This document shows, piece by piece, positions 6,997 to 24,740 of a stretch of 64,000 bases of DNA (positions are counted from its first letter, which is position 1; each line of letters opens with the position of its first letter). The stretch comes from Desulfobacterales bacterium (GTDB lineage Bacteria > Desulfobacterota > Desulfobacteria > Desulfobacterales > JAFDDL01), in assembly GCA_040235505.1 (NCBI GenBank), contig JBECKW010000017.1:8139-72138 (forward strand). Direction: 5' to 3'. A model generated the notes under the pieces. That model was not told the origin of the DNA. It worked only from the letters and a program-made list of their open reading frames with translations, and made no database searches. The position numbers and the translations under genes are program-made.

Positions 6997-7013
6997 GTTA
7001 ATTTTTCAGCATA

Positions 7014-7442: not shown

Positions 7443-7500
7443 TTTTTCCTCCCGTTATTGATTATTTCAGTAAATAGAAGGCCTATACCATACTTTTTTT

Positions 7501-7531: not shown

Positions 7532-7540
7532 ACTTTTTGC

Positions 7541-9580
7541 TTATGTCGGTTCCAGAACAATGCCTGTGCGGGTCGGTAGATAAAGCTGAAGCGTCTGGAC
7601 ATCGGCATTCTCGGACGCAACGGGCAGGGGATGGTGAACCTGGCCCGGGGTAAGCCGTCCATGGCCGCCGAACTCGGCCGCATCCGAATCGAGAAGCATC
7701 CGATAGGTGCCGCGCGGCACCTGGATGCCATAGCCCGTATACGAGTTCGTCGGATGAAAATTGAAGACAAACAGCAGGCCCTTTCGGTGAAAGGCGATCA
7801 CCTTGTCATCGTTATGTTCATGGAGAAGATACGGCCAGGAAGCCTTCAGAACTTCCCGTTTTTTGACGAGACGGATCATCTCCTTGTCAAACCGGTCCAG
7901 GCATCTGTATTTCAGGTCCGGATTATCCACCAGGTGCCATTGACGCCGGGCGTATTTGTAGGACCAGCCGTTTCCTTCCCTGGGAAAATCAATCCATTCC
8001 GGGTGACCGAATTCGTTTCCCATGAAATTGAGGTATCCATGGCCGGCCGTGGCGATGGTGATGAGCCGGATCATTTTGTGAAGCGCTATTCCCCGGGCCA
8101 CATTCATGTGATCGTCGTCCCGGTGCATGTGCTCGTACATATTCGCGTCGATCAGGCGGAACATCAGGCTCTTGTCTCCCACCAACGCCTGGTCATGGGA
8201 CTCGGCATAGCTGATGGTCCGTTCATCGGATCTCCGGTTGTTGAGTTCAAACCACAGGTGCCCCATGTGCCAGTCCTCATCCCGGGTATCCTTGGTCAGT
8301 TTGATCCAGTGGTCTGGAACTCCCATGGCGAACCGGTAGTCAAATCCGGCGCCGCCGTTATCCGGATGCACGCCCAGGCCGGGCATCCCGCTGACATCTT
8401 CGGCGATGACAACGGCGTCAGGATGAATCGTGTGGATAAGCTTGTTGGCCAGGGTCAGATAGGTCAGTGCCTCCTCATCCACGGACGCATCGAAGTAATC
8501 ATCATAGGAAGTAAACGCCTTGGACAGGCCGTGGTGGGTGTAAAGCATGCTTGTAACCCCGTCGAACCGGAATCCGTCCACCCGGTACTCGTCGAGCCAG
8601 AACCGGCAGTTGGAAAGAAGAAAATGGAGCACCTGGGGTTTTCCGTAATCAAAACACCTGGAATCCCAAGCTCGATGATGCCCCTTTTCCCCCTCATGAA
8701 AATACTGATGGGCGGTTCCGTCAAACCGACCCAACCCCTCGACTTCATTGGAGACCGCATGGGAATGGACCATGTCCATCAGCACCGTCAGGCCGGCACC
8801 ATGGGCGGCGTCAATGAGTGCCTTCAGATCCTCTGGAGGGCCGAACCGGGACGATGCGGCGAAAAAATTAGAAACATGATATCCGAAGGAGCCGTAATAT
8901 GGATGCTGTTGAATGGCCATGAGCTGGAGGGTGTTGTATCCTGCGGAAACGATCCGGGGAAGAACGTTTTCCGTAAACTCCCGGTAGGTGCCGACCCCCT
9001 CCCGGTCCTGGGCCATGCCGACATGGACTTCATACACCAGCGGGGCGTCGCACCCACCGGGGGCGGCGTGTCGCCAACGGTAAGCGTCGGGCGGATCCCA
9101 GACCTGGGCATTAAAAATATGTGTTTCGCCGTCCTGGTGAACCCGCCGGACATAGACCGGAATGCGGTCTCCTTCGCCCCCCTCCCAATGGATCCGCAGC
9201 CGGTAAAGGTCTGCATGTTTCAGCACCTTATCCGGAAGCTCTATTTCCCAAACCCCCTCCGAAGAGATGCGGCGGAGTTCAAACTCGCTTGTTTCCCCCC
9301 AACCTGAAAAGTCTCCCACCAGAAAAACCGTCGTGGCATTCGGAGCCCACTCCCGGAACACCCAGCCGGAGGCTGTCCGGTGAAGTCCAAAAAATTCATG
9401 CCCGGACGCAAACTCGGCCAAGGACATCTTCCCGCCCGTCAACCGATGCTCCGTTTCTTTGACCGCCCGGATCCGGCGAAGCAATGCCTCCGAATAGGGT
9501 GTTAAATATGGATCCTGCCGAAGCAACCGCTTCAACTGCTGCTCACCGTATCGATTTAAATTGGACGCCGTTTTCTTCAT
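7541..9580 (-). CDS. glgB: 1,4-alpha-glucan branching enzyme, eukaryote-type (GH13_8-like)
   Basis: 679 aa. GH13 regions are DMVHSHA, DGFRFDGVTSMLY, IAEDVSG and YAESHDQ. NFMGNEFGHPEWIDFPR resembles the eukaryotic GBE1-type signature. Confidence 0.92.
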   Translation of the reverse strand: MKKTASNLNRYGEQQLKRLLRQDPYLTPYSEALLRRIRAVKETEHRLTGGKMSLAEFASGHEFFGLHRTASGWVFREWAPNATTVFLVGDFSGWGETSEFELRRISSEGVWEIELPDKVLKHADLYRLRIHWEGGEGDRIPVYVRRVHQDGETHIFNAQVWDPPDAYRWRHAAPGGCDAPLVYEVHVGMAQDREGVGTYREFTENVLPRIVSAGYNTLQLMAIQQHPYYGSFGYHVSNFFAASSRFGPPEDLKALIDAAHGAGLTVLMDMVHSHAVSNEVEGLGRFDGTAHQYFHEGEKGHHRAWDSRCFDYGKPQVLHFLLSNCRFWLDEYRVDGFRFDGVTSMLYTHHGLSKAFTSYDDYFDASVDEEALTYLTLANKLIHTIHPDAVVIAEDVSGMPGLGVHPDNGGAGFDYRFAMGVPDHWIKLTKDTRDEDWHMGHLWFELNNRRSDERTISYAESHDQALVGDKSLMFRLIDANMYEHMHRDDDHMNVARGIALHKMIRLITIATAGHGYLNFMGNEFGHPEWIDFPREGNGWSYKYARRQWHLVDNPDLKYRCLDRFDKEMIRLVKKREVLKASWPYLLHEHNDDKVIAFHRKGLLFVFNFHPTNSYTGYGIQVPRGTYRMLLDSDAAEFGGHGRLTPGQVHHPLPVASENADVQTLQLYLPTRTGIVLEPT

Positions 9581-9592
9581 ATAACATCCTCC

Positions 9593-11107
9593 TCACCTCA
9601 CCAACGGCCGATTGAGCATTTTCTCATACAAGTCAATATACTTTTTCGCAGTCACCCCATGCGTGAATATCTCGGCACTCTCTTTCATAATCCTTTCAAT
9701 CTCACGTGCCTTCACCTCCCGGGGCAGGTGGTGAAACGCCATGGCCTGCTCTATTGCCCAGAAAAGTCCCTGCGGGTCCGCGGTGTTAAACAGAAAGCCG
9801 TTTCCCGTGCGCTTCTTCACATCCAAGTGGGCCACGGTGTCATGGATACCGCCGGTGTCATGGGCAACCGGCAGCGCCCCGTATAGAGCCCCGACCATCT
9901 GGGGGAGTCCGCAGGGTTCGAAAAATGAAGGCATCAGGATGAAATCCGCAACACCGTAAGCGAGCCGGGACAGATTTTCCTGAAAATCGGCCACCAGCAC
10001 CCGCTGGTGAATATTGTGAAACCGGACAATGTTGTGAAAATGAATTTTAAAGTCGCCGTTCGCTACAATAACCACCTGCAGGTGGTCGTCCCAGTACCTG
10101 GAAACAACGTCATATAAAATTTCCGCAAGGAGCTGAGAGCCCTTTTGAACCGTATCGAGCCGCGACGGCCAGAAAAAAACCGGGGCTTCCGGATCGAGAA
10201 CCAGCCCCAGATGTTTCTGAAAAAACCTCTTGTTTTCCCGCTTTGCCTCAGCATGATCTTCGGGTCCATAGGTTCGCGCCAGGGCCTTGTCGGTGGTGGG
10301 ATTGTAGGACGGGTCCGGCGCATTCAAAATTCCAGTGGCACACTCGGCATTCCATTTGTTGGAAAGCTCCTGCTGAAGGGAGGGTTCGAAAAACTGATGC
10401 CGGCCTTCCACCACCTCGGCCAGAAAGGTCGAGCTGACCGTATTGACAAAGTGGGCCGCAAAAACACCGCTGCATAGAAAATCCACGGGATTCCATTCCC
10501 GGGTGTCTTCATAGGACCAGGGCATATAACGAAAATAAAGATGCTTCCAGAAAGCGGCGGCATCGATTCCCATATCTTCAATATGGGCAAGGGGTTTTCG
10601 GACCGTGTAGATATTGTGAATGGTGAACAGACAGGGAATATCCATTTCGCGCGCCATGGCGGGCACCAGGCCGGTCATCCAGTCGTTGCAGTGGATGAGA
10701 TCGGGCTGAACCCGGGGGACAATATTGTTGATCACTTCCCGCTGAAACGCCAGGGATATTTTTGCGTTTTCCCATTCATAGCTGGAGTAGACCCGGTCCA
10801 CATAAAAAAACGCCCGATCCTCGGCCAGATGGATCCGCTCCTGGGGCATGGTACCCCGAATGGTTTTCATCTCATTGCGAAGGATCGGAGACAGATGTTC
10901 CGAAAACAAGGTTCGGTAATCCGGAAGCGCCACATGCACATCGGCACCCTGCTGAAACAAGGCGCTGACAAGCGCCGAGGAAACATCCGCAAGACCCCCT
11001 GCCTTGGCCGTCAGGCTGTTTGCGATATTCCCCATGCCGTCCGGCAAATACGTTACTTCCGGTGTGACAATCAATATCCTCGGATTTTTTTTATTATTTA
11101 CCGCCAT
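9593..11107 (-). CDS. glgA: Glycogen/starch synthase (GT5-like)
   Basis: 504 aa. ILIVTPEVTYLP...KAGGLADVSSALVSAL matches the N-terminal KTGGL-type motif, and LMPSFFEPCGLPQM matches the C-terminal GT-B block. Lies 12 nt upstream of glgB. Confidence 0.85.
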   Translation of the reverse strand: MAVNNKKNPRILIVTPEVTYLPDGMGNIANSLTAKAGGLADVSSALVSALFQQGADVHVALPDYRTLFSEHLSPILRNEMKTIRGTMPQERIHLAEDRAFFYVDRVYSSYEWENAKISLAFQREVINNIVPRVQPDLIHCNDWMTGLVPAMAREMDIPCLFTIHNIYTVRKPLAHIEDMGIDAAAFWKHLYFRYMPWSYEDTREWNPVDFLCSGVFAAHFVNTVSSTFLAEVVEGRHQFFEPSLQQELSNKWNAECATGILNAPDPSYNPTTDKALARTYGPEDHAEAKRENKRFFQKHLGLVLDPEAPVFFWPSRLDTVQKGSQLLAEILYDVVSRYWDDHLQVVIVANGDFKIHFHNIVRFHNIHQRVLVADFQENLSRLAYGVADFILMPSFFEPCGLPQMVGALYGALPVAHDTGGIHDTVAHLDVKKRTGNGFLFNTADPQGLFWAIEQAMAFHHLPREVKAREIERIMKESAEIFTHGVTAKKYIDLYEKMLNRPLVR

Positions 11108-11122: not shown

Positions 11123-13675
11123 TTATTTGGGCCAGGTGATAAACCCCGGACTGTTTTTTATCCAATGGTCCGCCCGGGGCGTTACCCGGGCGGTGAACCC
11201 GAAACGACCCGACAAACCGCAGGAAATCCTGCAACCATAGAGATATCTTCCTCCACCAAGATCTTTTTCCACCGTCATGCTCTCGGCGCGTCCCTCCGAA
11301 AGCGAATTAAAGGTTTTCACGTGTCCGTAATACAGTTCCACATCGACTTCGTCGGGAATCAGCTGTCCAAGAAAAACCCGAACGGTGGCATAAAATTCGT
11401 CCCCCACCCGGAAAGGTCCTTCCTCGTCCCGAACCGGCTGTTCAATCCGGACGTTTCTCCACAGAGAGCGGATTCGTTCCGATTGCTTGACCAGTTCCCT
11501 GGCCTGCCAGGCATCTTTTTCCAGCAATCCGGCATGCCGGCGGGCTGCCGGCCGGTAGAACCGTTTTTCGTATTCATCCACCATTCGATATCCACTGTAT
11601 TCCCTGAGGGCGATTTTCATGGATTCCTTCATCATCTTCAGCCACCGCTCCGGCGGTTCCCCGCCCTTTCTTTCATAAAAGGAGGGGACCACTTCGTTTT
11701 CGAGGATATTATAAAGCGCCTGACTTTCCACGGCATCCTGGTAGGCCGGATCCTGATATTCAGTTCCGTCGCCGATGGCCCATCCCCGGCCTGGGGCATA
11801 TCCCTCGCACCACCAACCGTCCAGGACGCTGACATTCAAGACACCGTTCAGGGCCGCTTTCATACCGGACGTACCGCACGCCTCCAGGGGACGCCGGGGG
11901 GTGTTGAGCCAGACATCGGCCCCCTGAACCAGGTACTTCGAAAGACGCATATCGTAATTTTCCAGAAAAATAACCCGATGCCCCAGTTTTTCCTGCCGAA
12001 TGAAGTTAATGAGCTGCTGGATCAGCATTTTTCCGTCATGATCCTTTGGATGGGCTTTTCCCGCAAAAATAATCTGTATCGGCCGCGTTTCCGATCGAAG
12101 CAGATCCTTCAGACGCTTGGGATCCTGAAGCAATAGATGCGCCCGCTTATACACCGCAAACCGCCTGGCAAAGGCAATGGTGAGAACCCCTTGATCCAGA
12201 ACGGAGCCGGCCGCTTCCATCGTGGCTTTGGGGGCGTTTCGCTGCCCGTACTGTCTGACCATCAGTTCCCGGCATATCCGTATCAGGCGGGATCGACATA
12301 TCTCATGGGCGTGCCACAGTTCCTCATCATAAATCTCGTCGATTCGGTCTATGAAGGCCCCGTTTTTCTTCATCAGATGCCATTCCGGCCCAAGGTTTCT
12401 TTCCAGCAGGGCGGCGTTCTCGTGGGAGATCCAGGTGGCCGAATGTACTCCATTGGTCAGATGTGAAATCGGCACCTCGTCCTCGGGAAGCTCCGGCCAC
12501 AAGTGAGACCACATTCTACGGGCCACGTGACCATGCAGCCGGCTCACCCCGTTGCAGTATTCGGCCATGCGAAGCCCCAGCACGAACATGGACACCGGTG
12601 TTGACGGCCCGCTTCCCCTGGGCTGACCCCAGGACAAAATATCCTCCGCTGTTGTGTTCAGCCGTTTCTCCAGAGGAAGGATGTAGGGGCGGATCATCTC
12701 CACGGGAAATTCGTCATGCCCGGCGGAAACCGGCGTATGGGTCGTGAACACGGTACTCCGGGGCACCACCTGAAGTGCGGTCTTCAGATCGACGTTGTCG
12801 GTCTCCATGGTTTGGGCCAGGCGTTCGAGGCTGGAGAACGCGGAATGCCCCTCGTTCATATGACAAACCACAGGTCGAATACCCATGGCCGAGAGGGCCC
12901 GAATCCCCCCGATGCCCAGCACCATTTCCTGGGCAAGGCGTATTTTCGAATCGCCTTCGTAGAGACGGGCCGTGATATCCCGCAGTTCCTTCGGGTTTTC
13001 GCTGATATGGGTGTCAAGCAAATAGAGCGGAATCCTGCCCACCGGAACTTCCCATACAACGACTTGCACCGTCCCCATGGGGCTTTCGATGGAAACCAGG
13101 ACTTCTTTTCCGTCCGCCGCTTTTGCCCGCTTGATGGGCAGATAGAACAGATCCGTTTCCGGGTATGCTTCCTGCTGCCATCCATCCTGATTCAAATACT
13201 GCTCGAAGTATCCCTGGCGGTATAAAAGTCCAAGGCCCACCAGCGGAAGCTTTTTGTCCGAAGCCGCCTTGAGGTGATCCCCGGCGAGTACCCCCAGCCC
13301 GCCAGCAAAAAGCGGCAGACTTTCATGGAGCCCGAATTCCATCGAGAAGTATGCGATGGTGCCGTTTCTGTCGAACAGCCCAGCCGGTGTTGCCCCCTCA
13401 CTCTTTATATCCTGATCAAAACTTTTCTTTACCCATTCCAGGTGAGCCAGAAAACCGTTATCTTCCGCCAGCTGTTCCAATTGCGCCTGGGATAAAAGGG
13501 TCGAAAACCGGATCGGATTGCCGCCGGCCTGATCCCAAAGCTTTGGATCGATACGCCGGAAAAGTTCTTTGGCATCCCAGTGCCAGGTCCACCAGAGGTT
13601 TCTCGATAGTGTGGAGAGAAACCTCAAGTTTTCGGGTAGATATGGAAAAACTTGAAATGTCTGTAGATGGCTCAT
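11123..13675 (-). CDS. glgP: Alpha-glucan phosphorylase (GT35, with DUF3417-type N-terminus)
   Basis: 850 aa. EACGTSGMKAALNG carries the PLP lysine block. The N-terminus LPENLRFLSTLSRNLWWTWHWDAKELFRRIDPKLW is typical of the alpha-glucan phosphorylase clade. Confidence 0.9.
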   Translation of the reverse strand: MSHLQTFQVFPYLPENLRFLSTLSRNLWWTWHWDAKELFRRIDPKLWDQAGGNPIRFSTLLSQAQLEQLAEDNGFLAHLEWVKKSFDQDIKSEGATPAGLFDRNGTIAYFSMEFGLHESLPLFAGGLGVLAGDHLKAASDKKLPLVGLGLLYRQGYFEQYLNQDGWQQEAYPETDLFYLPIKRAKAADGKEVLVSIESPMGTVQVVVWEVPVGRIPLYLLDTHISENPKELRDITARLYEGDSKIRLAQEMVLGIGGIRALSAMGIRPVVCHMNEGHSAFSSLERLAQTMETDNVDLKTALQVVPRSTVFTTHTPVSAGHDEFPVEMIRPYILPLEKRLNTTAEDILSWGQPRGSGPSTPVSMFVLGLRMAEYCNGVSRLHGHVARRMWSHLWPELPEDEVPISHLTNGVHSATWISHENAALLERNLGPEWHLMKKNGAFIDRIDEIYDEELWHAHEICRSRLIRICRELMVRQYGQRNAPKATMEAAGSVLDQGVLTIAFARRFAVYKRAHLLLQDPKRLKDLLRSETRPIQIIFAGKAHPKDHDGKMLIQQLINFIRQEKLGHRVIFLENYDMRLSKYLVQGADVWLNTPRRPLEACGTSGMKAALNGVLNVSVLDGWWCEGYAPGRGWAIGDGTEYQDPAYQDAVESQALYNILENEVVPSFYERKGGEPPERWLKMMKESMKIALREYSGYRMVDEYEKRFYRPAARRHAGLLEKDAWQARELVKQSERIRSLWRNVRIEQPVRDEEGPFRVGDEFYATVRVFLGQLIPDEVDVELYYGHVKTFNSLSEGRAESMTVEKDLGGGRYLYGCRISCGLSGRFGFTARVTPRADHWIKNSPGFITWPK

Positions 13676-13690: not shown

Positions 13691-16600
13691 TTATAATTGT
13701 TTCAACATCAGCCGCACTCGCAAAAGTTCGCTCACGCTCCATGCCTGGGCATCGCAGCCGCGCTGTTGGTGGGGCACGTCCCCGTCCAGAATTTCCGGAA
13801 TCTGCCCCAGACAGCCTTCCGACATTAATCGAACGCTGCTGCAAAGCCAGGCGCCGGCTGTCGCGGCGGCCAAGGGGCCATAGGTCATGACCCACGCCTC
13901 GCAGAAACCTGGCAGGAGCCAGGCCCAGGCGGTGCCGTTGTGGTAAGCGGGTTTTCTTCCGGTATCTTCATCTCCGAGATAAACCCCCCTGTATGGATTC
14001 AGCGGATCATTGAGAGCCGTTCCATGGTGCAGGATGGGGAGTGGGCGCTTTACCGGCCGGTCCGCCAGGCTTCGTACTGCTCCCGGAACCAGAAGCTCCT
14101 GGCAGGCGTCCAGGATTCTCCGACACAGATCGCTGTCCGTAACCGCTCCCAGCGTAATGGCCAGAAGCTGGTTCGGCCGCAGGTAGTCATCGGCGTCTGC
14201 CTTACCGGCGGTTTCGCCGCCGGGGGCGTGCAGACAGTCGGCCAAATATCCGCGCTCCGGTAGGAAAAAGAGTTTCCGGATGGCAGCACGAACCTTTTCG
14301 AGCAACTCTCGCCAAGGGCCCTGCTTCTGCTGCGGATCGATTCGGGAAAGAAAAGAAAGGGCATGGCACCACAATGCCTGAATTTCGATGGGATACCCTT
14401 CCCGGGGCGTTCCGGCCGGAAAATTGGTGTCCATCCAGGTAAAGTGGGCGGGACTGAAGATGAGCCCCGTTTCCCCATCCATCCGGACTCCGTTTTCGGT
14501 TCCGGCCATATAGCCGGCTGCAATGGAAAAAAGAACTTCCCGAATGGTTCTGCGCCCCACCCGGGTATCGACAAACCGAAAGGACGCTTCCTTCTCCACC
14601 ATGTCCCGGCATCCCACAAAGAACCACAGGGGAGCATCGGAAGTGTCCCGGTTTGAAACGTTACTTCCTGCGATCATGTTCGGCAGCATGCCGCCTTTTT
14701 CAAACTGCCCGAACTGACGTAAAACCGACCGGGCATCGGAAAGACGGCCGGCCGCCACAAGGCCCCGGACCACAATCAGCGAATCCCGGCCCCAGTCTAG
14801 AAACCAGGGATATCCGGCAATGATGGATTTAAGCCCCCCCCGACGAACCACAAACTGCCCCAGGGCCCGCTCCAGCGCCTCGTCCATGGGAAACGACGAG
14901 GGCAGGCCGTAGAGAGATTCTTCGGAAAGCCCGGAAATGTCCTGGTTCGGCGGTTGCTGTTCATCGCCCGAACCCACGCGGGCGGTCAATACTACCGGCC
15001 GACCACCCGAAAGTGTCGCTGTGAAATATCCCGGACTGAACAGATCCGAATCCGGGTCATACCCCCGCCGGCTGTCGCCGGGCCGATGTACCATATACTG
15101 CCATTCGGGCTCCGAAACAAACCGGCTGCCCGGAGAAAAGACCGCCAACCGGCAATCGGGCTCCGGCGTAAAAAGAAAACCCTCCGGGCGCGGCGACACC
15201 GCCTGTTTCCAGGCATTTTCCGGCCCGAGGTATGCCTTTGTCGTGGAATGAAAGTTTCTGCTTTCAACATCGGGGCGAATGATCAGGCGAACCGGGTACT
15301 GATCGTCAAGCCTTCCGTCGCGCCCTTCCGCAGGATGCCGGTAGAAAAGAAGTCTTACGGAATTTTCTTCTTTCGCCATTTCCGCGCGAATCGTCAGCCG
15401 CACATGCTCTCCCTGTCCCGTGGGCACGTGAAACCGCCACAGGCCCCGTCCCTCCATGTCCAAATGAAAGGTATGAAAGGTGTCGAAGCAAAGCTCCTGG
15501 GAAAAGGCCTGATAAACGATCCAGCAACGGCACCGGGCAAGCATGATCCACCGGTCTTCGGGATACTTCGGGTTTCGGTTGGCGGCTAAAAGCGCATCAT
15601 ACCTGCTTTCGAGGCGTCCCCAGACAAGGGGGGCCCTGAGCATGCCGCCCAGACGGTTGGTGGCCAGGTAGCTGCGGGAAGAGAATAGAAGATCGCCGCG
15701 GCCCAGAAGAGTGGGTATCTGCAGTTTTTCCGGCTCTGGCAGATAGAGCAAGGGCGCGATAACATGGCGGCAATCCGGGCTTGAAAAAATCGATAATCTC
15801 AAGGACCGTTGCCGCAATCCGGCGGAAGGCGGCAGGGGCGAGAAGATTGCAAACCAGGAGCCGTCGGCCGCCGGCAGACTTTCTTCTTTGACAAGCGTTT
15901 TTTCTTCTTCCGTAATGCGCGCCTGGAAGGAAGTGTCGGCGGTTACCAGAAGAAAATGCCCGGGGGGAATCATTATTTCCCGCTTCATATCCCGGGGCCA
16001 GCACCAAGCGATAAAGCCCGGCTGGGGGGAAAGTTTGCCCTGCTTCCGGCAGTACGCCTTTGGATCGTGGTGGAGTTCTTCAGCTTCATTTTCCGGGTCA
16101 ACGTCTCCCACATCCGCTATCGTCAAACCGCCGCAACGAATTTCCAGCGCCTTTGCACGAAGCTGCTGACGTACGATTCTGGGAATCAGCCCCGGCTGAT
16201 ATCGCTCCTGAATATCCAGGTACTTCAGATCCTCAGGCTCCTGCGTCAGGCACAGGACCCGGCCGGGGGCGAGCTTACAGGCGGGCTTTCCCCCGCGGCG
16301 GACTGGGGTGACGGTTTCCCGGGTCAGAAGATCGGTCAGCGGCCGGGTGCCGGGATCGAACACGCTCCCGTCCCATGCGGCCTCTGTTTCCTTCGTGTCA
16401 TCCAGGTTGGCCAGAATCAGAAGCTCTTTGCCCGATGGCCGGTGGCGACGAAAAAGCGCCACATGGTTCCCGGTGCCTTTCTGCACCAGCGAGAGCTGGG
16501 TGCGATCATGAAACGCCGGATGGTTCCTTAAAAGCGTTGCCAGCAGGCCGATGGTCGAAACTTGGTTTTCCGATGCCCCCCAGTTAAGGCCCGGGGCATC

Positions 16601-17977
16601 GTGCACATTGATCTTTTCGGTGGCAAACCACTCCACACCGTTGGCAAACCCGAAGGCGCCGTAAGGTGCAAACAGGGCGCAAAGATCGGTTCGGAGCTTG
16701 GCCCAGGTTTTCGATTTTGCCGCCAGTCGCGGGTTGTCATGGGTTTCTGCAAAATGCACCATGATGCCCATCGTCTCGGCACTCTCGTTGGCTCCGGGCA
16801 GGTAGGTCTCGATCTGGGCCCGGTCGTAATTCTGAAACAGCTCCGAGTATGCCCAGTTGAAATTTCCTTCGTCCAGAAGGCGCTGCGTCACCGAAACCTT
16901 GCCGCCGAGCCCTTCGAGCAGAAAAATCGTGTCGGGGTACCGATCACGGATCATTGCAATGATAAACCGCCAGGCCTCCAGGGGAATCATGTATCCTGCA
17001 TCGCAGCGAAAGCCGTCCACCCCGCGGCGGCACCATGTCAGAAAAACATCCGCCATGTATTGCCAGAGATCCTTCTTCCGGTAATCGAGTTTGGTCAGAT
17101 CCGCCCACTCCACGCCCCAGGCGCCCGGCACTTCAATGCGGCCGTCCGCCCCCCGTGAAAGCCACTCGGGATGTGTCTCATGAAGATCCGCAGCCCAGCC
17201 GGTATGATTAATGGCGATATCCAGAATCAGCTTTCCATGTCGCTGGTGCACGGCGTCGAGCAGTTCGATAAACTGCTCCAGGGGGGTTGCATGGGGGTCA
17301 AATGCAGCCAGTGCCGGATCAACGGTCGTAAAACTCAAGGCCGCATACGGACTTCCAAACCGGCCCATGCGCGCATATGTGGTGGGGGTGGGGTGAATCG
17401 GAAGCAGCTGCAGATAGCGGCATCCGAGGGTTCCGATGATAAAATCGAGCTGGCTGGCCAGATCCCGAAACGTCCCGGAAGGGGGAATCACCGTATACCC
17501 GGCCTGGTCCAGGGCGGATATATCCGAGCTCAGCGCCGTCCGGTCCTTGAATCCGGGCTCTCCGGCCGCTCCGAATTGCCGTACAAAGGCATTGTAAAGA
17601 ATATTGGCACAACAGGTATGGGCCGGCTCAACATTCAACACCGTATTGGACCCGGAAGGCCAGACCGGATCCGAGGCCCCCTCGGGAAGAAAATAGCATT
17701 TTGCTTCAAAATGACCCACTTCGAGAAGCGGCACCACCACTTCAAAACGACCGCCGCCCAGGCTTCGCATGGGAACATCGAACCAATCGAGACCGAGGGG
17801 CGGAAGTTCTTCCTGAACCGACCGGATAATCTCCGCACGGATTTGAACCGCGTGACCGATATTGGTGCGAAGCCTTGCAGTTCCGGCATATTCTTCCGGC
17901 AGATGCAGATGAAACTTCTGCACATCTCCCCGAAAACGAAGCAAATGCGCACCGGGTGCGGGATACTGTTGGATCAC
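13691..17977 (-). CDS. Fusion protein: N-terminal GH13 alpha-amylase-family catalytic module + C-terminal archaeal/bacterial-type glycogen debranching enzyme (GDE_N + amylo-alpha-1,6-glucosidase, GH133-like)
   Basis: 1428 aa, GTG start. The N-terminal half has all four GH13 regions (LDIAINHTG, GVDGFRCDAGY, IFLLEGLGG, FAETHDN). The C-terminal half has GYPWFLDWGRDSLIVVRGL and YHNGTAWAWLLPGF, typical of amylo-1,6-glucosidase (GDE_C). Confidence 0.85.
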   Translation of the reverse strand: MIQQYPAPGAHLLRFRGDVQKFHLHLPEEYAGTARLRTNIGHAVQIRAEIIRSVQEELPPLGLDWFDVPMRSLGGGRFEVVVPLLEVGHFEAKCYFLPEGASDPVWPSGSNTVLNVEPAHTCCANILYNAFVRQFGAAGEPGFKDRTALSSDISALDQAGYTVIPPSGTFRDLASQLDFIIGTLGCRYLQLLPIHPTPTTYARMGRFGSPYAALSFTTVDPALAAFDPHATPLEQFIELLDAVHQRHGKLILDIAINHTGWAADLHETHPEWLSRGADGRIEVPGAWGVEWADLTKLDYRKKDLWQYMADVFLTWCRRGVDGFRCDAGYMIPLEAWRFIIAMIRDRYPDTIFLLEGLGGKVSVTQRLLDEGNFNWAYSELFQNYDRAQIETYLPGANESAETMGIMVHFAETHDNPRLAAKSKTWAKLRTDLCALFAPYGAFGFANGVEWFATEKINVHDAPGLNWGASENQVSTIGLLATLLRNHPAFHDRTQLSLVQKGTGNHVALFRRHRPSGKELLILANLDDTKETEAAWDGSVFDPGTRPLTDLLTRETVTPVRRGGKPACKLAPGRVLCLTQEPEDLKYLDIQERYQPGLIPRIVRQQLRAKALEIRCGGLTIADVGDVDPENEAEELHHDPKAYCRKQGKLSPQPGFIAWCWPRDMKREIMIPPGHFLLVTADTSFQARITEEEKTLVKEESLPAADGSWFAIFSPLPPSAGLRQRSLRLSIFSSPDCRHVIAPLLYLPEPEKLQIPTLLGRGDLLFSSRSYLATNRLGGMLRAPLVWGRLESRYDALLAANRNPKYPEDRWIMLARCRCWIVYQAFSQELCFDTFHTFHLDMEGRGLWRFHVPTGQGEHVRLTIRAEMAKEENSVRLLFYRHPAEGRDGRLDDQYPVRLIIRPDVESRNFHSTTKAYLGPENAWKQAVSPRPEGFLFTPEPDCRLAVFSPGSRFVSEPEWQYMVHRPGDSRRGYDPDSDLFSPGYFTATLSGGRPVVLTARVGSGDEQQPPNQDISGLSEESLYGLPSSFPMDEALERALGQFVVRRGGLKSIIAGYPWFLDWGRDSLIVVRGLVAAGRLSDARSVLRQFGQFEKGGMLPNMIAGSNVSNRDTSDAPLWFFVGCRDMVEKEASFRFVDTRVGRRTIREVLFSIAAGYMAGTENGVRMDGETGLIFSPAHFTWMDTNFPAGTPREGYPIEIQALWCHALSFLSRIDPQQKQGPWRELLEKVRAAIRKLFFLPERGYLADCLHAPGGETAGKADADDYLRPNQLLAITLGAVTDSDLCRRILDACQELLVPGAVRSLADRPVKRPLPILHHGTALNDPLNPYRGVYLGDEDTGRKPAYHNGTAWAWLLPGFCEAWVMTYGPLAAATAGAWLCSSVRLMSEGCLGQIPEILDGDVPHQQRGCDAQAWSVSELLRVRLMLKQL

Positions 17978-18030: not shown

Positions 18031-18237
18031 TTATGGATGCTTATGTCGAGGTGCGGGTTGCTCCAGACAGTCGTCTCTGAAACAGCATGCCGGTTGGTCG
18101 CAGAAATCCGAAGCGGATTTAAAACAGTCAAAATTTCCTTCAGACAGCTGAATCTCCCTAATCAGGGCTTCCTTTGTTTTTCCAAATGAAGAAATGTGGA
18201 GTTGTTTTGCCTTTTGGCGAATCTCTTGCATTTTCAT
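18031..18237 (-). CDS. Small SAP/Rho_N-like (helix-extension-helix) protein with Cys-rich C-terminus
   Basis: 68 aa. MKMQEIRQKAKQLHISSFGKTKEALIREIQ resembles the Rho_N/SAP fold. It is followed by GNFDCFKSASDFCDQPACCFRDDCL, which has 6 Cys. GGAGAG RBS. Confidence 0.6.
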   Translation of the reverse strand: MKMQEIRQKAKQLHISSFGKTKEALIREIQLSEGNFDCFKSASDFCDQPACCFRDDCLEQPAPRHKHP

Positions 18238-18441: not shown

Positions 18442-19833
18442 CTAGAAAGAGATGTCTTTTTCAATCACCGACCCCTCGGTGACCACCGCCGGCGTCTTCC
18501 GTGAATTGGTAATACATACCGACCCGACGATCGATACATTGGATTCGAAATGGACATCGCCGACAATGGTCAACGCGTCGCAGTTTATGAGGGACGGCAC
18601 CCCGTTTGGAAAGCGGCGGGTAAAATCGTCTATTTTGGTATAGTAGTTCGGGTCCAGATTAATCCGCATAATGCCTTTTTTCGAATTCGGATGTGCCTGA
18701 AAGCGTGAATTTTCTCCAAGAACAAACCGGTCCGATCGAAGAACCAGAAGGTCATTGCTCGTTTTGACGGGGAAGAACCGAATACGGGGAACCACCACCG
18801 CCGCTGCCCCCTTGAACAGGGAAATTGCCGCCCCCATGGCGGTTTCCACCTGAAATACCGGCGGGCTGTCTTCGTCCCTCGGGTCGATGGGTTTGGGGTT
18901 GAGAATCATGGGAAGTTTCACGACCCCCTCCCGGTCGATGATCTCTTGCAGGTGCTGCAGATTGATCCAGATATTGTTGGTGTTGAAGTATCGATACCGC
19001 CCGATATCCTGAAAAGAATTTATCTCCTCGGCGGGACACTGGGCGGACTCACGAAGCACCAGCCCTCCGCCTTTTGAATAGGCCAGATGACCGCCTTTTG
19101 CATCCGAAGGCAGCCTCTTGGCAACCTCCATCATGAAGGGTATTTCTCTCTCCGCAACATACCCCAGAAGAGAAGGGTCGAGGGATGCGCCCAGGTTGTC
19201 GGAGTTGGAAATAAGCGCATACCGAACCCCCAGGTCCAGCAATTTCCGGAGAAGTCCCGATATATGGAGGCTGATGTAAATATCGCCGTGCCCCGGCGGA
19301 TTCCATTCCAGTGTCGGATTTTCAGGATGCAAGGCGGGCATTAAATCCGATTGAAGAATCTTCGGAAACTTATGCTGAAGAAACATCATGGGGGTAATCG
19401 GTGACCCGATGCGCTCAAGCGCGGATGATGTCTCCTGCTGAGTATTGAAGCTGTTCATAAGACACAGGAGGCCGTTTTCCGCTTCCACCTGCTCCAGAAT
19501 GATTTCCAGAAAGCTCTTGCCGTTTTTGGCTTTCAGCAGCGATTTGGGGCCGGTTAGCCCCATGCTTGTCCCCAACCCACCATTGAGAACGATGCGAACG
19601 AACCGGTTGGATACGCGAAGGCCTGCTTCTTTATAATCTCCAAGCATCTTGGCATGCAGTAAATCTTCAGGCGCAACCGGTTCTATCTCCCGGTCATAAA
19701 TCATGGCGGTTCTGCCGGACACCACCTGGTCGTAGTAATACAGGAAAGTACGAATGATAGCCGGTTCAATACCCTCGGCTTCCATTTTTTCAACAATGGC
19801 GTTTCGGTTATTGGAGTTTGAAGACTCCGTCAT
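18442..19833 (-). CDS. UTP--glucose-1-phosphate uridylyltransferase, UDPGP (UGP2-like) family, paralog 2
   Basis: 463 aa. Contains VLNGGLGTSMGLTGPKSLLKAKNGKSFLEI, LISNSDNLGASLDP and YFNTNNIWINL. Roughly 60% identical to the 3744-5165 product by eye. Confidence 0.85.
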   Translation of the reverse strand: MTESSNSNNRNAIVEKMEAEGIEPAIIRTFLYYYDQVVSGRTAMIYDREIEPVAPEDLLHAKMLGDYKEAGLRVSNRFVRIVLNGGLGTSMGLTGPKSLLKAKNGKSFLEIILEQVEAENGLLCLMNSFNTQQETSSALERIGSPITPMMFLQHKFPKILQSDLMPALHPENPTLEWNPPGHGDIYISLHISGLLRKLLDLGVRYALISNSDNLGASLDPSLLGYVAEREIPFMMEVAKRLPSDAKGGHLAYSKGGGLVLRESAQCPAEEINSFQDIGRYRYFNTNNIWINLQHLQEIIDREGVVKLPMILNPKPIDPRDEDSPPVFQVETAMGAAISLFKGAAAVVVPRIRFFPVKTSNDLLVLRSDRFVLGENSRFQAHPNSKKGIMRINLDPNYYTKIDDFTRRFPNGVPSLINCDALTIVGDVHFESNVSIVGSVCITNSRKTPAVVTEGSVIEKDISF

Positions 19834-21073: not shown

Positions 21074-22066
<993 letters not shown>

Positions 22067-22122
22067 CGATGCGATCAGCGATCGGCTGTCAGCCGTCAGC
22101 TTTTAAAGGATGAATTTTTTCG

Positions 22123-23001
22123 ATGCTGCCCCCTGAACTGATCAAAAAAATAAAACGGATTCATATCCGAAGCGGCCGCGTGGTCAATACCATGATGGCG
22201 GGACAGTATAAATCCGTGTTCCGCGGTTCCGGCATAGAATTTGAAGAGGTCCGGGAATATTCTCCGGGTGATGAGGTCAAGAGCATCGACTGGAAAGTGT
22301 CGGCCCGGATGGGGCGGCCCTACATCAAACGATACCGGGAAGAGCGCGAACGCATCGTGATGCTCCTGGTGGACATGAGCGCCTCCGGTGATTTCGGCAC
22401 CACGGAAGCCCTCAAAAAGGAAGCCGCCGTGGAAACCGCGGCCGTGCTCGCCTTCAATGCCGTTCGAAACAACGACAAGGTGGGCGTGATTCTGTTTACG
22501 GACCAGGTGGAAAAATATATCCCCCCCCAGAAGGGCACCGCCCATGTCTGGCGCGTCATCAAGGAAATTTACACCTTCGCGCCGACACGTAAAAAAACGG
22601 ATATCGGGTGCGCCGTCCGGTACCTGGGGCAGGTCTCCAGAAAACGCGCCCTGTCCTTTCTGATCTCCGATTATCTTTCCGAAAATTATACGGGCCCGCT
22701 TAAAATCGCAGCCAAAAAGCATGAAATGATCGGGGTGCTCATTTCAGATCCCGGAGACTTTGCCCTTCCCCCGGGAGGGATGATGACCCTGGAGGACCTG
22801 GAAACCGGAGAGCGGCTTTTTCTGGATGCCTGGGACCGCCGGACCCGGCAGGCTTTCGCGGACAAACGGAAAGCGGATTACGACCGGACCCTGGAAACGC
22901 TGAAAGCCGCGGATATCGACTGCATTGAAATAAGCACCTGTGGGTCGGTGTCGGATGCGCTGATCAAGTATTTTCGGTACCGGGAGAAAATGAAACGATA
23001 G
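22123..23001 (+). CDS. DUF58 domain protein (vWA-like, MoxR partner)
   Basis: 292 aa. EEVREYSPGDEVKSIDWKVSARMGRPYIKRYREERE is the characteristic DUF58 block. Confidence 0.85.
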   Translation: MLPPELIKKIKRIHIRSGRVVNTMMAGQYKSVFRGSGIEFEEVREYSPGDEVKSIDWKVSARMGRPYIKRYREERERIVMLLVDMSASGDFGTTEALKKEAAVETAAVLAFNAVRNNDKVGVILFTDQVEKYIPPQKGTAHVWRVIKEIYTFAPTRKKTDIGCAVRYLGQVSRKRALSFLISDYLSENYTGPLKIAAKKHEMIGVLISDPGDFALPPGGMMTLEDLETGERLFLDAWDRRTRQAFADKRKADYDRTLETLKAADIDCIEISTCGSVSDALIKYFRYREKMKR

Positions 23002-23005
23002 TGTC

Positions 23006-23755
23006 ATGAGAAACCTCTGCGTCATCATCATGGGAGCCTTGATTCTTTTAGGCGGTGCGGCCGCCACCCGGGAATCTTCCGCCGCCCAGACGGCTTCCCC
23101 CGCGGGCCAGGCGGCCAATACCGGTCAGGTGACAAACACCGCCCCGGTGGCTGTCCCCGGCCAGACCGGGAAAGCCGCGCCCATGACCGACATTCATGAC
23201 ATCAAGCCCCTGGTTTCGGTGCCGGTGCCCATATCCCTGGCCGCCATTTTGCTCTGGGGGGGAATCGGTCTTCTGGCCGCTGCCGTGTTATTGGGGGGTT
23301 GGTTTTTGTGGAAACGGCGCCGCGGCAAAACGGTGGAAAGCGTCACGGCGATGCTCTCCCCGGAGGATACGGCATTTCAGCAGCTTTCGGCCCTGTCGCC
23401 GGATACCGCGAACGGAAAAGCCTTTTATTTCGCGCTGTCTGCTATTTTCAGGCAATATCTTGAGGGAAGGTTCGGCATCGACGGTCTGGAAATGACCACC
23501 GAGGAACTGCTGCCTCATGTGGAGACCCTGCCCCTTGAAAGGGATCTGAAACGGGATGCCAAGAAATTTCTGGTTTCCAGCGATCCCGTGAAATTTGCGG
23601 GCCTTCCGGCCTGCCTGGAATCCATGGAATCCGATCTCGGATTTGTCAGAAGCTTTGTCGAAACATCGGCGGCCTCCCTTCAGGCAGCGGAGGAAGAGGC
23701 CGGGCCGCCGGATGCCAAGGGCGAAATGGAGCAAGCGAATCGTGTTTCGATTTGA
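23006..23755 (+). CDS. Hypothetical membrane protein at the DUF4381 position of Bat operons
   Basis: 249 aa. It has a signal-like N-terminus, a low-complexity Ala/Gly/Thr stretch, one TM segment (LAAILLWGGIGLLAAAVLLGGWFLW) and then KRRRGK. The family call is by position and architecture only. Confidence 0.55.
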   Translation: MRNLCVIIMGALILLGGAAATRESSAAQTASPAGQAANTGQVTNTAPVAVPGQTGKAAPMTDIHDIKPLVSVPVPISLAAILLWGGIGLLAAAVLLGGWFLWKRRRGKTVESVTAMLSPEDTAFQQLSALSPDTANGKAFYFALSAIFRQYLEGRFGIDGLEMTTEELLPHVETLPLERDLKRDAKKFLVSSDPVKFAGLPACLESMESDLGFVRSFVETSAASLQAAEEEAGPPDAKGEMEQANRVSI

Positions 23756-24740
23756 AAATCCATATCTTCTGTTTCTATTGGGGCTCGTTCCCCTGCTGGC
23801 GGTGTTTCGAACCCGGCGGCGCCGTCCCCTTCACGTGGGCGTCTCCACACTTCGTCCGGTCAAAACGCTCCCCTCCGGCATGTTTGCCACCCTGGCCCGG
23901 ATGCTTCCGGTGCTCAAATACGGCGCCCTGTGCCTGATGGTCATTGCGCTTGCCCGGCCCCAGTGGGGCACCCGGGAAGTCAATGTCCGCACCGAAGGCA
24001 TCAACATCATTCTGGCGGTGGATCTTTCCGGAAGCATGGCGGCCCTTGATTTCAACAAAAACGGAAAAATCATCGACCGGCTGGAGGCGGCCAAGGGCGT
24101 TATACAGGACTTTATCAGTAAGCGCTCCGGGGACCGGATCGGCCTGGTGGTGTTCGGCTCCGAGGCCTATACCCAGCTTCCCCTCACCCGGGATTACAAC
24201 ACCATTTCGGAGATCCTCCAGCGGCTTAAAATCGGTGCCGCCGGACAGAGCACCGCCATCGGGGACGCCATCGGCATCTCGCTGAAACGTCTGGAAGACA
24301 TCAAGGGAAAATCGAATATCATCATTCTGCTCACCGACGGGCGGAGCAACGCCGGAACCCTCTCTCCCGAAGCGGCGGTGGATATTGCCGCTCGGAAGGG
24401 CGTGAAAATTTACACCATCGGTATCGGGGGTGAGGGCCGGGCCCCGTTTGCCGTGAATGTTCCCGGATTCGGCGTGAGATATGTCTATCAGCAGGTGGAC
24501 ATTGACGAAAATGCGCTGAAGGAAATCGCGAAAAAAACGAACGGCCAATATTTCCGGGCGGAAGATTTGAAGGGGCTTGAAAAAATATACAACACCATCG
24601 ACCGGCTTGAAAAGACCCAGGCCATCGTCAAAATCTACGACAACTATCGGGATCTATATCCCTACAGCCTCTTTCCTGCGTTTGCGCTGCTCGGGCTTTG
24701 GATCCTCCTGGCTCATACACGGTTTTTGAGGCTGCCATGA
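23742..24740 (+). CDS. batA: vWA-domain membrane protein BatA
   Basis: (V)FRFENPYLLFLLGLVPLL is the typical BatA N-terminus. MIDAS motif is ILAVDLSGSM. I chose the GTG at 23742. The in-frame ATG at 23712 and the ORF-track start at 23595 are alternatives. Confidence 0.8.
   Translation: MFRFENPYLLFLLGLVPLLAVFRTRRRRPLHVGVSTLRPVKTLPSGMFATLARMLPVLKYGALCLMVIALARPQWGTREVNVRTEGINIILAVDLSGSMAALDFNKNGKIIDRLEAAKGVIQDFISKRSGDRIGLVVFGSEAYTQLPLTRDYNTISEILQRLKIGAAGQSTAIGDAIGISLKRLEDIKGKSNIIILLTDGRSNAGTLSPEAAVDIAARKGVKIYTIGIGGEGRAPFAVNVPGFGVRYVYQQVDIDENALKEIAKKTNGQYFRAEDLKGLEKIYNTIDRLEKTQAIVKIYDNYRDLYPYSLFPAFALLGLWILLAHTRFLRLP

Follow-up and report, generated by a model that had tools for sequence, protein, structure and literature searches.

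Organization of the operon

The analysed window is a stretch of 64,000 nucleotides from a Desulfobacterales bacterium. It includes a glycogen operon, the first gene of which encodes a 1428-residue-long protein with GH13 and GH133-type modules (Table 1). The sequence AAGGAG is located 9 nucleotides upstream of the start codon of the fusion gene, which is followed by genes for a phosphorylase (GlgP), a glycogen synthase (GlgA), and a branching enzyme (GlgB), with intergenic gaps of 12–15 nucleotides. The order fusion-GlgP-GlgA-GlgB, with the fusion gene in the first position, is shared by 41 of 47 related loci, and a UDP-glucose pyrophosphorylase is encoded upstream on the same strand in 12 of 44. 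Genes resembling glgX, malQ, or glgC were not found among the scanned open reading frames of the window with at least 150 codons, and neither treS nor pep2 was found in the window or the operon.

Table 1 Genes, domains, and predicted catalytic codons of the glycogen operon (positions in the window).
Feature	Position	Strand	Remarks
Branching enzyme, GlgB-like	7541..9580	-	CBM48-GH13-Alpha-amylase_C
GT5 glycogen synthase, GlgA-like	9593..11107	-	Score under NCBIfam cut-off
Alpha-glucan phosphorylase	11123..13675	-	TIGR02094 / Thermococcales maltodextrin-phosphorylase type; 15 nt downstream of fusion stop
Fusion gene	13691..17977	-	1428-aa GH13-GH133 protein; GTG start, stop (TAA) at 13691-13693
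GDE_C / GH133-type (α/α)6 barrel, aa 1041-1428	13694..14857	-	PF06202 (1041-1420), E 8.4e-66
Codon E1395 (IPEILDG), putative GH133 general base	13793..13795	-	Invariance; position in model
Codon D1183 (TWMD)	14429..14431	-	Aligned with C. glabrata GDE catalytic D1241
GDE_N β-sandwich, aa 768-995	14993..15676	-	PF12439, E 1.6e-29; AlphaFold2
Middle region, aa 581-760	15698..16237	-	Three-helix linker 581-646, then β-sandwich 655-745
GH13 domain C, β-sandwich, aa 491-580	16238..16507	-	AlphaFold2 strands 493-578, pLDDT ~90
GH13 (β/α)8 barrel, short domain B, aa 166-490	16508..17482	-	PF00128; conserved regions I-IV present
Codon D414 (FAETHDN), predicted GH13 transition-state stabiliser	16736..16738	-	Alignment, conservation
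Codon E355, predicted GH13 general acid/base	16913..16915	-	Alignment, conservation
Codon D326, predicted GH13 nucleophile	17000..17002	-	C325 before, A327 after
N-terminal β-sandwich, aa 1-130	17588..17977	-	AlphaFold2 pLDDT >90; no Pfam family
UDP-glucose pyrophosphorylase, eukaryote-type, upstream gene	18442..19833	-	PF01704

Architecture and distribution of the fusion protein

The polypeptide is composed of an N-terminal β-sandwich, a GH13 barrel, domain C, a helical linker, an additional β-sandwich, the GDE_N domain, and a GH133-type (α/α)6 barrel. The Pfam families PF00128, GDE_N, and GDE_C are matched within one open reading frame, as expected from the earlier note, which described the gene as a single-chain fusion. 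Nothing resembling a signal peptide is present at the N-terminus. As the structural match to GlgE spans about 720 columns, the first domain is probably a counterpart of the N-terminal domain in that protein. The earlier note recognized nothing in about 200 residues in the middle. A Pfam scan of residues ~580–767 indeed yields no family; however, AlphaFold2 predicts three helices and a β-sandwich in this segment with high confidence. The middle region is the least conserved part of the protein, with 17–25% identity among representatives.

The reading frame encodes a genuine single-chain protein and is not an artefact, because it is unbroken in 63 of 65 related loci and has relatives in at least 571 GTDB species genomes. 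The 65 loci are independent, come from different assemblies, and have enough sequence to be scored; the unbroken frames have at least 1380 codons across both halves, and include those in the complete isolate genomes of Desulfoluna limicola and Desulfonema ishimotonii. The joining of two genes by an assembly error or a frameshift, a concern raised in the earlier note, could be read from the two loci with interrupted frames and from locus L081, where the gene is split into two overlapping open reading frames of 970 and 461 residues. This explanation has next to no probability, since it is refuted by the comparative data; moreover, the GC content is even along the gene, and the domain junctions are confidently modelled by AlphaFold2.

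More than 100 full-length homologues with 57–76% identity share the architecture. The wider survey of its distribution, to which the earlier note had pointed, yielded 191 clusters (50% identity) with E ≤ 1e-30, most of them 1380–1570 residues long, and members are known from Desulfobacterota, Kiritimatiellia, and Planctomycetota. Published reviews describe the GH13-GH133 debranching fusion as restricted to eukaryotes, whereas the bacterial fusion occurs in hundreds of species.

The catalytic barrels are the most conserved parts of the protein, with identities of 58% and 52%, as opposed to 17–37% elsewhere. Residues D326, E355, D414, and E1395 are present in all 118 close homologues and in all 51 sequences of an alignment of the query with 50 cluster representatives, in which the identity falls as low as 32%. 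Residue D1183 is present in 118 of 118 and 50 of 51, respectively. This conservation indicates that both catalytic sets are under selection.

Structure and relatives of the GH13 module

The GH13 module scores 37.1 bits with the Pfam Alpha-amylase profile PF00128 (cut-off 22). The GH13 motifs read by the earlier note are all in place (LPIHP, 192–196; GSPYA, 208–212; LDIAINHTG, 252–260; GVDGFRCDAGY, 319–329; IFLLEGLGG, 351–359; FAETHDN, 409–415), including the invariant Asp/Glu/Asp triad. The nearest solved relatives of the barrel are Lp_0179 (3DHU) and AmyB (4GKL), which are exo-acting, maltose-forming enzymes, followed by the maltosyl-transferring GlgE. Searches of the PDB with the single sequence gave E-values of 1e-31 for 3DHU, 2e-19 for 4GKL, and 1e-9 for GlgE, and those with a profile gave 4e-34 for 3DHU and 1.5e-23 for 4GKL. 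The residue directly preceding the nucleophile D326 is C325, and a cysteine in this position is a signature of subfamily GH13_48 (PMC11239784). The residues H103 and D135 from the pocket of AmyB that binds the non-reducing end correspond to H258 and D293 of the fusion protein, both of which are invariant; D293 is also the counterpart of D359 from the −2 subsite of GlgE. The AlphaFold2 model has low confidence in the active-site loops 194–228, 414–421, and 447–465, so the subsite architecture of the GH13 module is derived from the alignment alone.

The resemblance to GlgE proposed in the earlier note holds at the level of the fold, as GlgE structures are the top Foldseek matches of the N-terminal half (E ~1e-26). 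However, it does not extend to the chemistry. The phosphate of maltose-1-phosphate is held in GlgE by N352, K355, Y357, and N395 (Sco numbering, PMC4526890), and none of the four is retained in the fusion protein, which has A286, V289, W291, and A327 instead. The residues A286, W291, and A327 are near-invariant in the family, and 49 of 51 sequences have V, T, or I at position 289. The position of Gln324 in GlgE is taken in the fusion protein by H258, the canonical histidine from conserved region I.

The homology of the GH13 module to the transferase of eukaryotic glycogen-debranching enzymes (GDEs), subfamily GH13_25, was also considered and rejected. The hDGE_amylase profile (PF14701) scores under the Pfam cut-off, hGDE_N and hGDE_central do not match the fusion protein, and the 50 best structural matches listed with the N-terminal half as query include no eukaryotic GDE.

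Structure and relatives of the GH133 module

The C-terminal half has the GDE_N domain, which is of the type that precedes GH133 barrels in prokaryotes, and a barrel that is a predicted amylo-α-1,6-glucosidase, in agreement with the earlier note. Among PDB structures, its best Foldseek match is the glucosidase domain of the GDE of Candida glabrata (cgGDE), with about 520 aligned columns, a root-mean-square deviation of 4.4 Å, and 18% identity; a search of the PDB with the GH133 profile gave 5e-13. The two proteins have the motifs WGRD, TWMD, GTPREG..EIQ, and YHNG..W in common; in the fusion protein GYPWFLDWGRDS is located at residues 1055–1066 and YHNGTAW at 1345–1351. Residue D1183 aligns with D1241, which is catalytic in cgGDE (PMC12219210). 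Residue E1395 may serve as the general base, as the putative counterpart of cgGDE E1492, because it is invariant and placed before the last helix. The NCBIfam model of archaeal and bacterial GDEs matches with an E-value of 1.4e-37, as opposed to 4.2e-7 for the eukaryotic model; the score with TIGR01561 of 129.9 bits is well under the cut-off of 364. Models of GlgX reach E-values of only 2e-5 to 0.02.

The comparisons indicate that both modules are of prokaryote-type origin. The bacterial fusion was most likely assembled independently of the eukaryotic GH13_25-GH133 enzyme, and the two appear to be convergent. The word analogue, used in the earlier note, is therefore apt.

Proposed function of the fusion protein

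It is moderately probable that the fusion protein is a cytoplasmic two-site enzyme of glycogen degradation, which debranches indirectly, in two steps, together with the phosphorylase encoded downstream. Two-step debranching by a single chain is the most economical reading, because the catalytic sets are intact and the glycogen operon is conserved. In the first step, the GH13 site would engage the non-reducing end of a branch trimmed by the phosphorylase and take off the α-1,4-linked remainder, most likely a maltosyl unit bound in closed −2/−1 subsites. The unit could be handed on to another chain end, at its 4-OH; transfer of this kind occurs in eukaryotic GDE and in the second half-reaction of GlgE. 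Alternatively, maltose could be released by hydrolysis, as in the closest characterized relatives of the module. The characterized GH13_48 enzymes are hydrolases and not transferases, which weighs against the proposed function. In the second step, judging from homology, the GH133 site would hydrolyse the leftover α-1,6-linked residue to free glucose. Removal of a maltosyl unit would expose a single-glucose stub only if the phosphorylase leaves stubs of odd length (three residues). Of the indirect mechanism suggested in the earlier note, the two-step role is retained, with transfer and hydrolysis both as candidates for the GH13 reaction. We infer the substrates, order of action, and products, as opposed to the architecture, catalytic residues, module origins, and operon context, which are shown.

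The two activities might instead be unlinked, with the GH133 site debranching by itself and the GH13 site acting as an exo-amylase that makes maltose from released or imported maltodextrins or from outer chains, so that no single branch would be processed by the two sites in succession. In favour of this reading, the closest characterized relatives of the GH13 module work on their own as exo-hydrolases, with maltopentaose, dextrin, and pNP-maltoside as substrates. Prokaryotes commonly have GDE_N-GDE_C proteins of the stand-alone type (PMC4236520), and conservation is poor in the linker and middle region. We consider this arrangement unlikely, although worth attention: at least three phyla have retained the fusion with an unchanged order of domains and an unchanged length, even where the identity falls to 32%, and of the shorter matches checked, with P0189 and P0123 from long contigs left out, most were fragments from short contigs and one was a probable frameshift. 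Furthermore, a GH133 glucosidase needs a partner that exposes single-glucose stubs, and the operon offers no other candidate.

The sharing of an operon with the synthase, branching enzyme, and phosphorylase, often after UDP-glucose pyrophosphorylase, would also suit an enzyme that edits branches during glycogen synthesis, trimming misplaced or too short ones alongside GlgA and GlgB by analogy with isoamylase in starch synthesis. Such a role is improbable, given that bacterial glg operons usually mix genes for synthesis and degradation (PMC11046441) and that the immediate and most constant neighbour of the fusion gene is the phosphorylase. Even less probable, to a degree that makes it hardly credible, is the GlgE-type maltosyltransferase coupled to debranching that the earlier note put forward, in which maltose-1-phosphate would elongate a glucan. 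The fold match including the N-terminal domain, the shared IHP...GSP(Y/W)A loop and −2 subsite Asp, and the automatic JGI annotation of many homologues as 'starch synthase (maltosyl-transferring)' speak for it. By contrast, the phosphate tetrad is replaced, the region-I histidine is present, GH13_48 hydrolases match the sequence better than GlgE does by about 20 orders of magnitude, and the window lacks detectable treS and pep2; GlgE-type chemistry was rejected on the tetrad and the missing genes.

Comparison with known systems

Eukaryotic GDE (AGL / Gdb1; GH13_25 + GH133; 5D06, 7EKU, 8ZEQ) resembles the fusion protein in being one chain of ~1430–1530 residues, with a GH13 barrel on the N-terminal side, β-sandwich connectors in the middle, and a C-terminal GH133 (α/α)6 barrel, and both are tied to phosphorylase-based degradation of glycogen. 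However, the GH13 module of the bacterial protein is of another type, its GH133 barrel is preceded by the prokaryote-specific GDE_N, and the unit it handles is probably maltosyl rather than maltotriosyl.

The GH13_48 enzymes AmyB from Thermotoga neapolitana and Lp_0179 from Lactiplantibacillus plantarum match the barrel best in sequence and share with it the cysteine before the nucleophile, the IHP...R-x-G..GSPYA loop, and the pocket residues. The target-normalized TM-scores are 0.71–0.72, although the identity is only 19–23%. These are stand-alone hydrolases of ~420–450 residues with domains A, B, and C only, whereas the fusion protein has an additional N-terminal β-sandwich and about 850 further residues. 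Its conserved region VII ends with G-V instead of the G-Q of the subfamily, and a methionine occupies position 204 in place of a lysine. In overall fold, residues 1–760 are closest to GlgE (GH13_3; 3ZSS, 4U33), with which they share the −2 subsite Asp and Ser and the IHP loop; both proteins appear to be built for a maltosyl unit. Unlike GlgE, the fusion protein has the canonical region-I histidine and lacks the phosphate-binding tetrad and the TreS/Pep2 context.

The C-terminal ~660 residues have a two-domain layout identical to that of prokaryotic GDE_N-GDE_C proteins (GH133; TIGR01561 archaeal type), which are ~600–700 residues long and, unlike the fusion protein, have no GH13 module. The GH133 gene of Sulfolobus acidocaldarius is of this kind; the over-accumulation of glycogen in its knockout, cited in PMC11046441, is the sole functional evidence known for prokaryotic GH133. 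GlgX / TreX enzymes (GH13_11) debranch alongside GlgP in bacterial glg operons and have the physiological role proposed for the fusion protein. However, their architecture is unrelated: they are CBM48-GH13 proteins with one active site, which cuts off whole maltotriosyl or maltotetraosyl branches.

Architecture, integrity and spread of the fusion protein

The earlier note described a single chain that joins a GH13 module to a GH133-type barrel, and this description is borne out. The gene is one open reading frame of 1428 codons with a GTG start, preceded at 9 nt by AAGGAG, and its GC content does not shift along its length. All motifs cited in that note were found at the expected positions of the protein. 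The N-terminal module is GH13 according to both the Alpha-amylase model PF00128 (37.1 bits; cut-off 22) and the barrel and domain C of the AlphaFold2 model; the hDGE_amylase and GH77 models gave sub-threshold matches only. The structure was predicted in two overlapping pieces, residues 1–760 (mean pLDDT 80.9, pTM 0.87) and 600–1428 (85.1, 0.89). Pfam scans of residues 1–131 and 580–760 returned no match. The middle part at approximately 580–767, previously reported as unrecognised, is thus still without a Pfam family, but AlphaFold2 folds it into three helices and a beta-sandwich. Among 50 cluster representatives, with overall identity down to 32%, the two barrels are the most conserved parts (58% and 52%), and the connector has the lowest identity (17–25%).

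Features of the fusion protein (residue numbers) and of the surrounding window (nucleotide positions)
Feature	Location	Strand	Evidence or content
Beta-sandwich	residues 1–130		AlphaFold2
(beta/alpha)8 barrel	residues ~166–490		AlphaFold2
GH13 domain B	residues ~255–301		AlphaFold2; ~47 aa
Domain C	residues 493–578		AlphaFold2
Three helices	residues 581–646		AlphaFold2
Second beta-sandwich	residues 655–745		AlphaFold2
GDE_N sandwich	residues 768–995		AlphaFold2; Pfam GDE_N over the same residues, E 1.6e-29
(alpha/alpha)6 barrel	residues 1041–1428		AlphaFold2; Pfam GDE_C (PF06202) at 1041–1420, E 8.4e-66, 222.8 bits (cut-off 21)
UGPase paralogue	3744–5165	-	PF01704, E 7e-120
GlgA and GlgB	7541–11107	-	275 bits (TIGR02095 cut-off 328) and 305 bits (cut-off 577)
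Phosphorylase	11123–13675	-	DUF3417; TIGR02094 'alpha-glucan family', 799 bits
Fusion gene	13691–17977	-	
68-aa Cys-rich ORF	18031–18237	-	MKMQEIRQKAKQLHISSFGKTKEALIREIQLSEGNFDCF...
UGPase paralogue	18442–19833	-	PF01704, E 2e-115
Bat-type 'aerotolerance' operon	21074–28546	+	MoxR AAA+ ATPase, DUF58, VWA/BatA-like, VWA-TPR, BatD
409-aa ORF	29015–30244	-	no Pfam family at E<=1e-5
359-aa ORF	51093–52172	-	no Pfam family at E<=1e-5
MnmE/TrmE and YidC genes	53592–57487	-	adjoining genes

A large protein database contains more than 100 full-length homologues of 1426–1453 aa, which share 57–76% identity and the same three Pfam domains. They carry automatic names such as 'amylo-alpha-1,6-glucosidase' and 'glycogen debranching protein' or, at JGI, 'starch synthase (maltosyl-transferring)'; therefore, the protein does not represent a new sequence family. 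The distribution survey proposed earlier was carried out with residues 1–760. When one genome for each GTDB species was scanned, at least 571 genomes proved to encode a relative, and the best 80 of these all belong to Desulfobacterales, Syntrophales or their relatives; the nearest relative among the matches listed is 73% identical. An exhaustive comparison with 1.84 billion cluster representatives yielded 191 clusters at E<=1e-30, mostly of 1380–1570 aa. Divergent members of the fusion family occur in Kiritimatiellia, Planctomycetota and the cultured Desulfoluna limicola. Desulfonema ishimotonii and Desulfosudis oleivorans are further carriers of the fusion.

In 63 of the 65 loci with enough sequence, both halves lie in a single unbroken frame of 1380 codons or more, and an assembly artefact joining two genes is thereby rejected. 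In one related locus (L081, positions 6001–10273 of a 146-kb metagenomic contig), the gene consists of two ORFs of 970 and 461 aa that overlap by 26 nt, with the break between GDE_N and GDE_C; this is probably a frameshift rather than a natural split. The same locus has an additional GT4-type glycosyltransferase gene between the UGPase and the fusion. The shorter database matches, searched for natural split forms, were mostly fragments on short contigs; two that lie on long contigs, P0189 and P0123, were outside this check.

The GH13 active site

The catalytic Asp/Glu/Asp, which had been read as being in place, are D326, E355 and D414. They are present without exception in 118 close homologues and in an alignment of 51 sequences, made up of the query and 50 cluster representatives. 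The conserved regions, with D253..H258, D326, E355 and H413-D414, align to the matching residues of 3DHU, 4GKL and GlgE. In sequence, the module is closest to 3DHU, Lp_0179 of L. plantarum (E 1e-31 with a single sequence, 4e-34 with a profile), followed by 4GKL, AmyB of T. neapolitana (2e-19 and 1.5e-23), and by GlgE, represented by 3ZSS and others (1e-9 and 7e-14). 3DHU and 4GKL are founding members of GH13_48, a subfamily whose enzymes are exo-acting and split off maltose at the non-reducing end (PMC11239784), and Lp_0179 has been described as an 'exotype glucan hydrolase' with high activity on pNP-maltoside (PMC6815381). A cysteine directly precedes the nucleophile in conserved region II of 81% of GH13_48 members (PMC11239784). 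The fusion has the corresponding GFRC325D326, with the cysteine retained in 117 of 118 close homologues and 45 of 51 aligned sequences, and the non-reducing-end pocket residues H103/D135 of AmyB correspond to its invariant H258/D293. By contrast, conserved region VII reads FANG447V448EW, with valine in 118 of 118 homologues, where 3DHU and 4GKL have NGQE. Because G-V takes the place of G-Q, the module is not classed as GH13_48. GH13_48 enzymes consist of domains A, B and C only, with a domain B of ~30–40 residues; in the model of the fusion, domain B covers roughly residues 255–301 (~47 aa), and the protein has many extra domains.

The earlier note considered, as an alternative, a GlgE-like module coupling maltosyl transfer with debranching. 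The structural comparison with GlgE and Candida GDE paired the N-terminal half with GlgE and the C-terminal half with C. glabrata GDE. More than 300 GH13 fold matches were found in the PDB by Foldseek at E<=1e-3, and ranks 1–14 for the N-terminal half are all GlgE (E 8e-27 to 1e-22, ~720 columns, TM-score normalised to target 0.57–0.60). An N-terminal beta-sandwich, barrel and domain C are common to both proteins, and the extent of the match suggests that it takes in the modelled N-terminal sandwich, which the small GH13_48 enzymes lack. The resemblance holds for the fold but not for the phosphate site, and in sequence the module is closer to 3DHU and 4GKL. Maltose-1-phosphate is bound in GlgE (Sco) by N352, K355, Y357 and N395 (PMC4526890); in both single-sequence and profile alignments these are replaced in the fusion by A286, V289, W291 and A327. 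The fusion also differs from GlgE in possessing the usual region I histidine. With the phosphate site replaced and this histidine present, a maltose-1-phosphate-dependent reaction is unlikely. The ORFs scanned in the window include no treS or pep2 (maltokinase), the neighbours being GlgP, GlgA, GlgB and UGPase, and a GlgE-type maltose-1-phosphate enzyme was rejected. GlgE and the GH13_48 enzymes both handle a maltosyl unit in a closed -2/-1 donor site. Residues of this site are also found in the fusion, where D293 corresponds to D359 of GlgE and the serine of GSPYA to Ser279/303. The GH13 site of the fusion is of the exo, maltosyl-handling kind.

The GH133 active site

In the PDB, the C-terminal model is best matched by the glucosidase domain of C. 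glabrata GDE (cgGDE; E 2e-14 to 2e-12), with an rmsd of 4.4 Å and 18% identity over ~520 columns, followed by other enzymes that combine a sandwich with an (alpha/alpha)6 barrel. The site carries the glucosidase motifs of eukaryotic GDE. Two catalytic residues, D1241 and E1492, are known in the Candida enzyme (PMC12219210). D1183 of the fusion, in the motif TWMD, aligns with the catalytic acid D1241 (D1261 of hsGDE) and is an aspartate in 118 of 118 close homologues and 50 of 51 aligned sequences. E1395, in the motif PEILDG, is invariant and sits right before the last helix. A comparison of the C-terminal 99 residues with eukaryotic GDE, aimed at locating the general base, yielded no alignment to E1492 (E1502 of hsGDE). 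Judged from its conservation and position, E1395 is the candidate general base and the putative counterpart of E1492; D1409, another candidate nearby, varies among the 51 aligned sequences.

Genomic context

The fusion gene is the first of four genes on one strand, with those for the phosphorylase, GlgA and GlgB following at gaps of 15, 15 and 12 nt. This arrangement is kept in 41 of the 47 related loci that reach far enough; of the other six, two show a rearrangement and in four these genes are missing. The phosphorylase is closest to the Thermococcales maltodextrin phosphorylase (732 bits) and is not of the classical GlgP/MalP type, whose model, TIGR02093, scores just 95 bits. GlgA and GlgB both fall under the curated NCBIfam cut-offs and are divergent versions of these enzymes. 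The two paralogous UGPases are of the eukaryotic PF01704 type and not of the bacterial GalU type, and no NCBIfam model matched them. The best PDB matches of the paralogue upstream of the fusion are UGPases of Trypanosoma, Leishmania, yeast, plant and human (E down to 4e-110), and a homologue occupies the upstream position in 12 of 44 related loci. No glgC-, glgX- or malQ-like gene was found among the ORFs scanned in the window. The presence of PF01704 UGPases and the lack of glgC in the window suggest that glycogen synthesis is based on UDP-glucose.

The conserved cysteine-rich ORF of 68 codons between the UGPase and the fusion lies 53 nt upstream of the latter and is followed by a run of eight T. 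Pfam gave no match for it, but tblastn placed a homologue ahead of the fusion gene, in the same orientation, in five other loci (L041, L003, L013, L004 and L012). A scan for promoters and terminators gave no signal exceeding the shuffled expectation. The Bat-type operon lies beside the glycogen cluster on the opposite strand. Farther along the window, an MnmE/TrmE gene adjoins a YidC gene, an adjacency that, in many bacteria, is typical of the neighbourhood of the chromosomal origin of replication.

Proposed role in glycogen breakdown

The protein combines two conserved active sites in one cytoplasmic chain encoded within a glycogen operon. We lean slightly towards its being an indirect debrancher. 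The phosphorylase would shorten the outer chains, the GH13 site would remove the alpha-1,4 remainder of a branch and either pass it on to a different chain end or release it hydrolytically as maltose, and the GH133 site would then hydrolyse the alpha-1,6 glucose stub. A weak point of this scheme is that removal of maltosyl units bares a single glucose only from stubs of odd length. Phosphorylases of the related Thermococcales type are reported to act down to short chains (PMC11046441).

A broader reading, which we regard as tentative and rather doubtful, is that Desulfobacterota and some PVC bacteria run a glycogen cycle of eukaryotic logic. It would comprise a eukaryote-type UGPase, a GT5 synthase, a branching enzyme, a phosphorylase and a single-chain indirect debrancher that releases glucose without malto-oligosaccharides, with the fusion having arisen by convergence. 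Such a cycle would overturn the rule by which eukaryotes are defined by indirect and bacteria by direct debranching, and would provide a natural experiment on the repeated joining of chain-trimming and stub-hydrolysing sites. If indirect debranching itself is true, sulfate reducers and their relatives would obtain glucose, and not malto-oligosaccharides, from glycogen turnover, and the dichotomy on which arguments about the origin of storage metabolism in eukaryotes and plastids draw would need revision. The family would then serve as a simpler model, of separate evolutionary origin, for two-site debranching enzymes; their human counterpart is the enzyme that is defective in glycogen storage disease III.

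Comparison with known debranching enzymes

According to a structural study of human GDE published in 2025, the bifunctional enzyme is 'not in bacteria' (PMC12219210). Zmasek and Godzik list prokaryotes with GDE_N-GDE_C only (PMC4236520), as does the available portion of a Chem Rev review. The paper on GH13_48 gives the signatures of the subfamily and does not discuss GH133 fusions (PMC11239784). A literature search found no paper on a bacterial GH13-GH133 fusion family. The enzyme is of a known kind, but this bacterial variant has been neither recognised nor characterised; conserved, widespread and located within a glycogen operon, it is relevant to specialists in glycogen and CAZymes because it contradicts explicit statements. 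If it does debranch indirectly, it would also give prokaryotic GH133 a first biochemical characterisation and add a new GH13 specificity beside subfamily 48.

In the eukaryotic bifunctional enzyme, a 4-alpha-glucanotransferase shifts a maltotriosyl unit before the glucosidase acts. In a PDB sequence search, the match of the fusion to eukaryotic GDE is confined to the C-terminal domain. There, the archaeal/bacterial GDE model of NCBIfam scores 1.4e-37 against 4.2e-7 for the eukaryotic one, both below their cut-offs, and TIGR01531 reaches 27.6 bits (cut-off 1399); given this preference and the presence of GDE_N, the C-terminal half is a prokaryote-type GH133 protein. For the GH13 half, PF14701 (hDGE_amylase) stays under its cut-off of 27 bits throughout, with 17.6 bits in the fusion and 22.8–26.8 bits in three of the six homologues examined; it is unlisted at E<=0.01 in the other three. 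Neither hGDE_N nor hGDE_central has a Pfam match in the fusion or in the six homologues scanned. Direct homology to the eukaryotic GH13_25 transferase was rejected on these grounds. Since the nearest relatives of both halves are prokaryotic, the likeness to eukaryotic GDE is best read as the result of an independent fusion.
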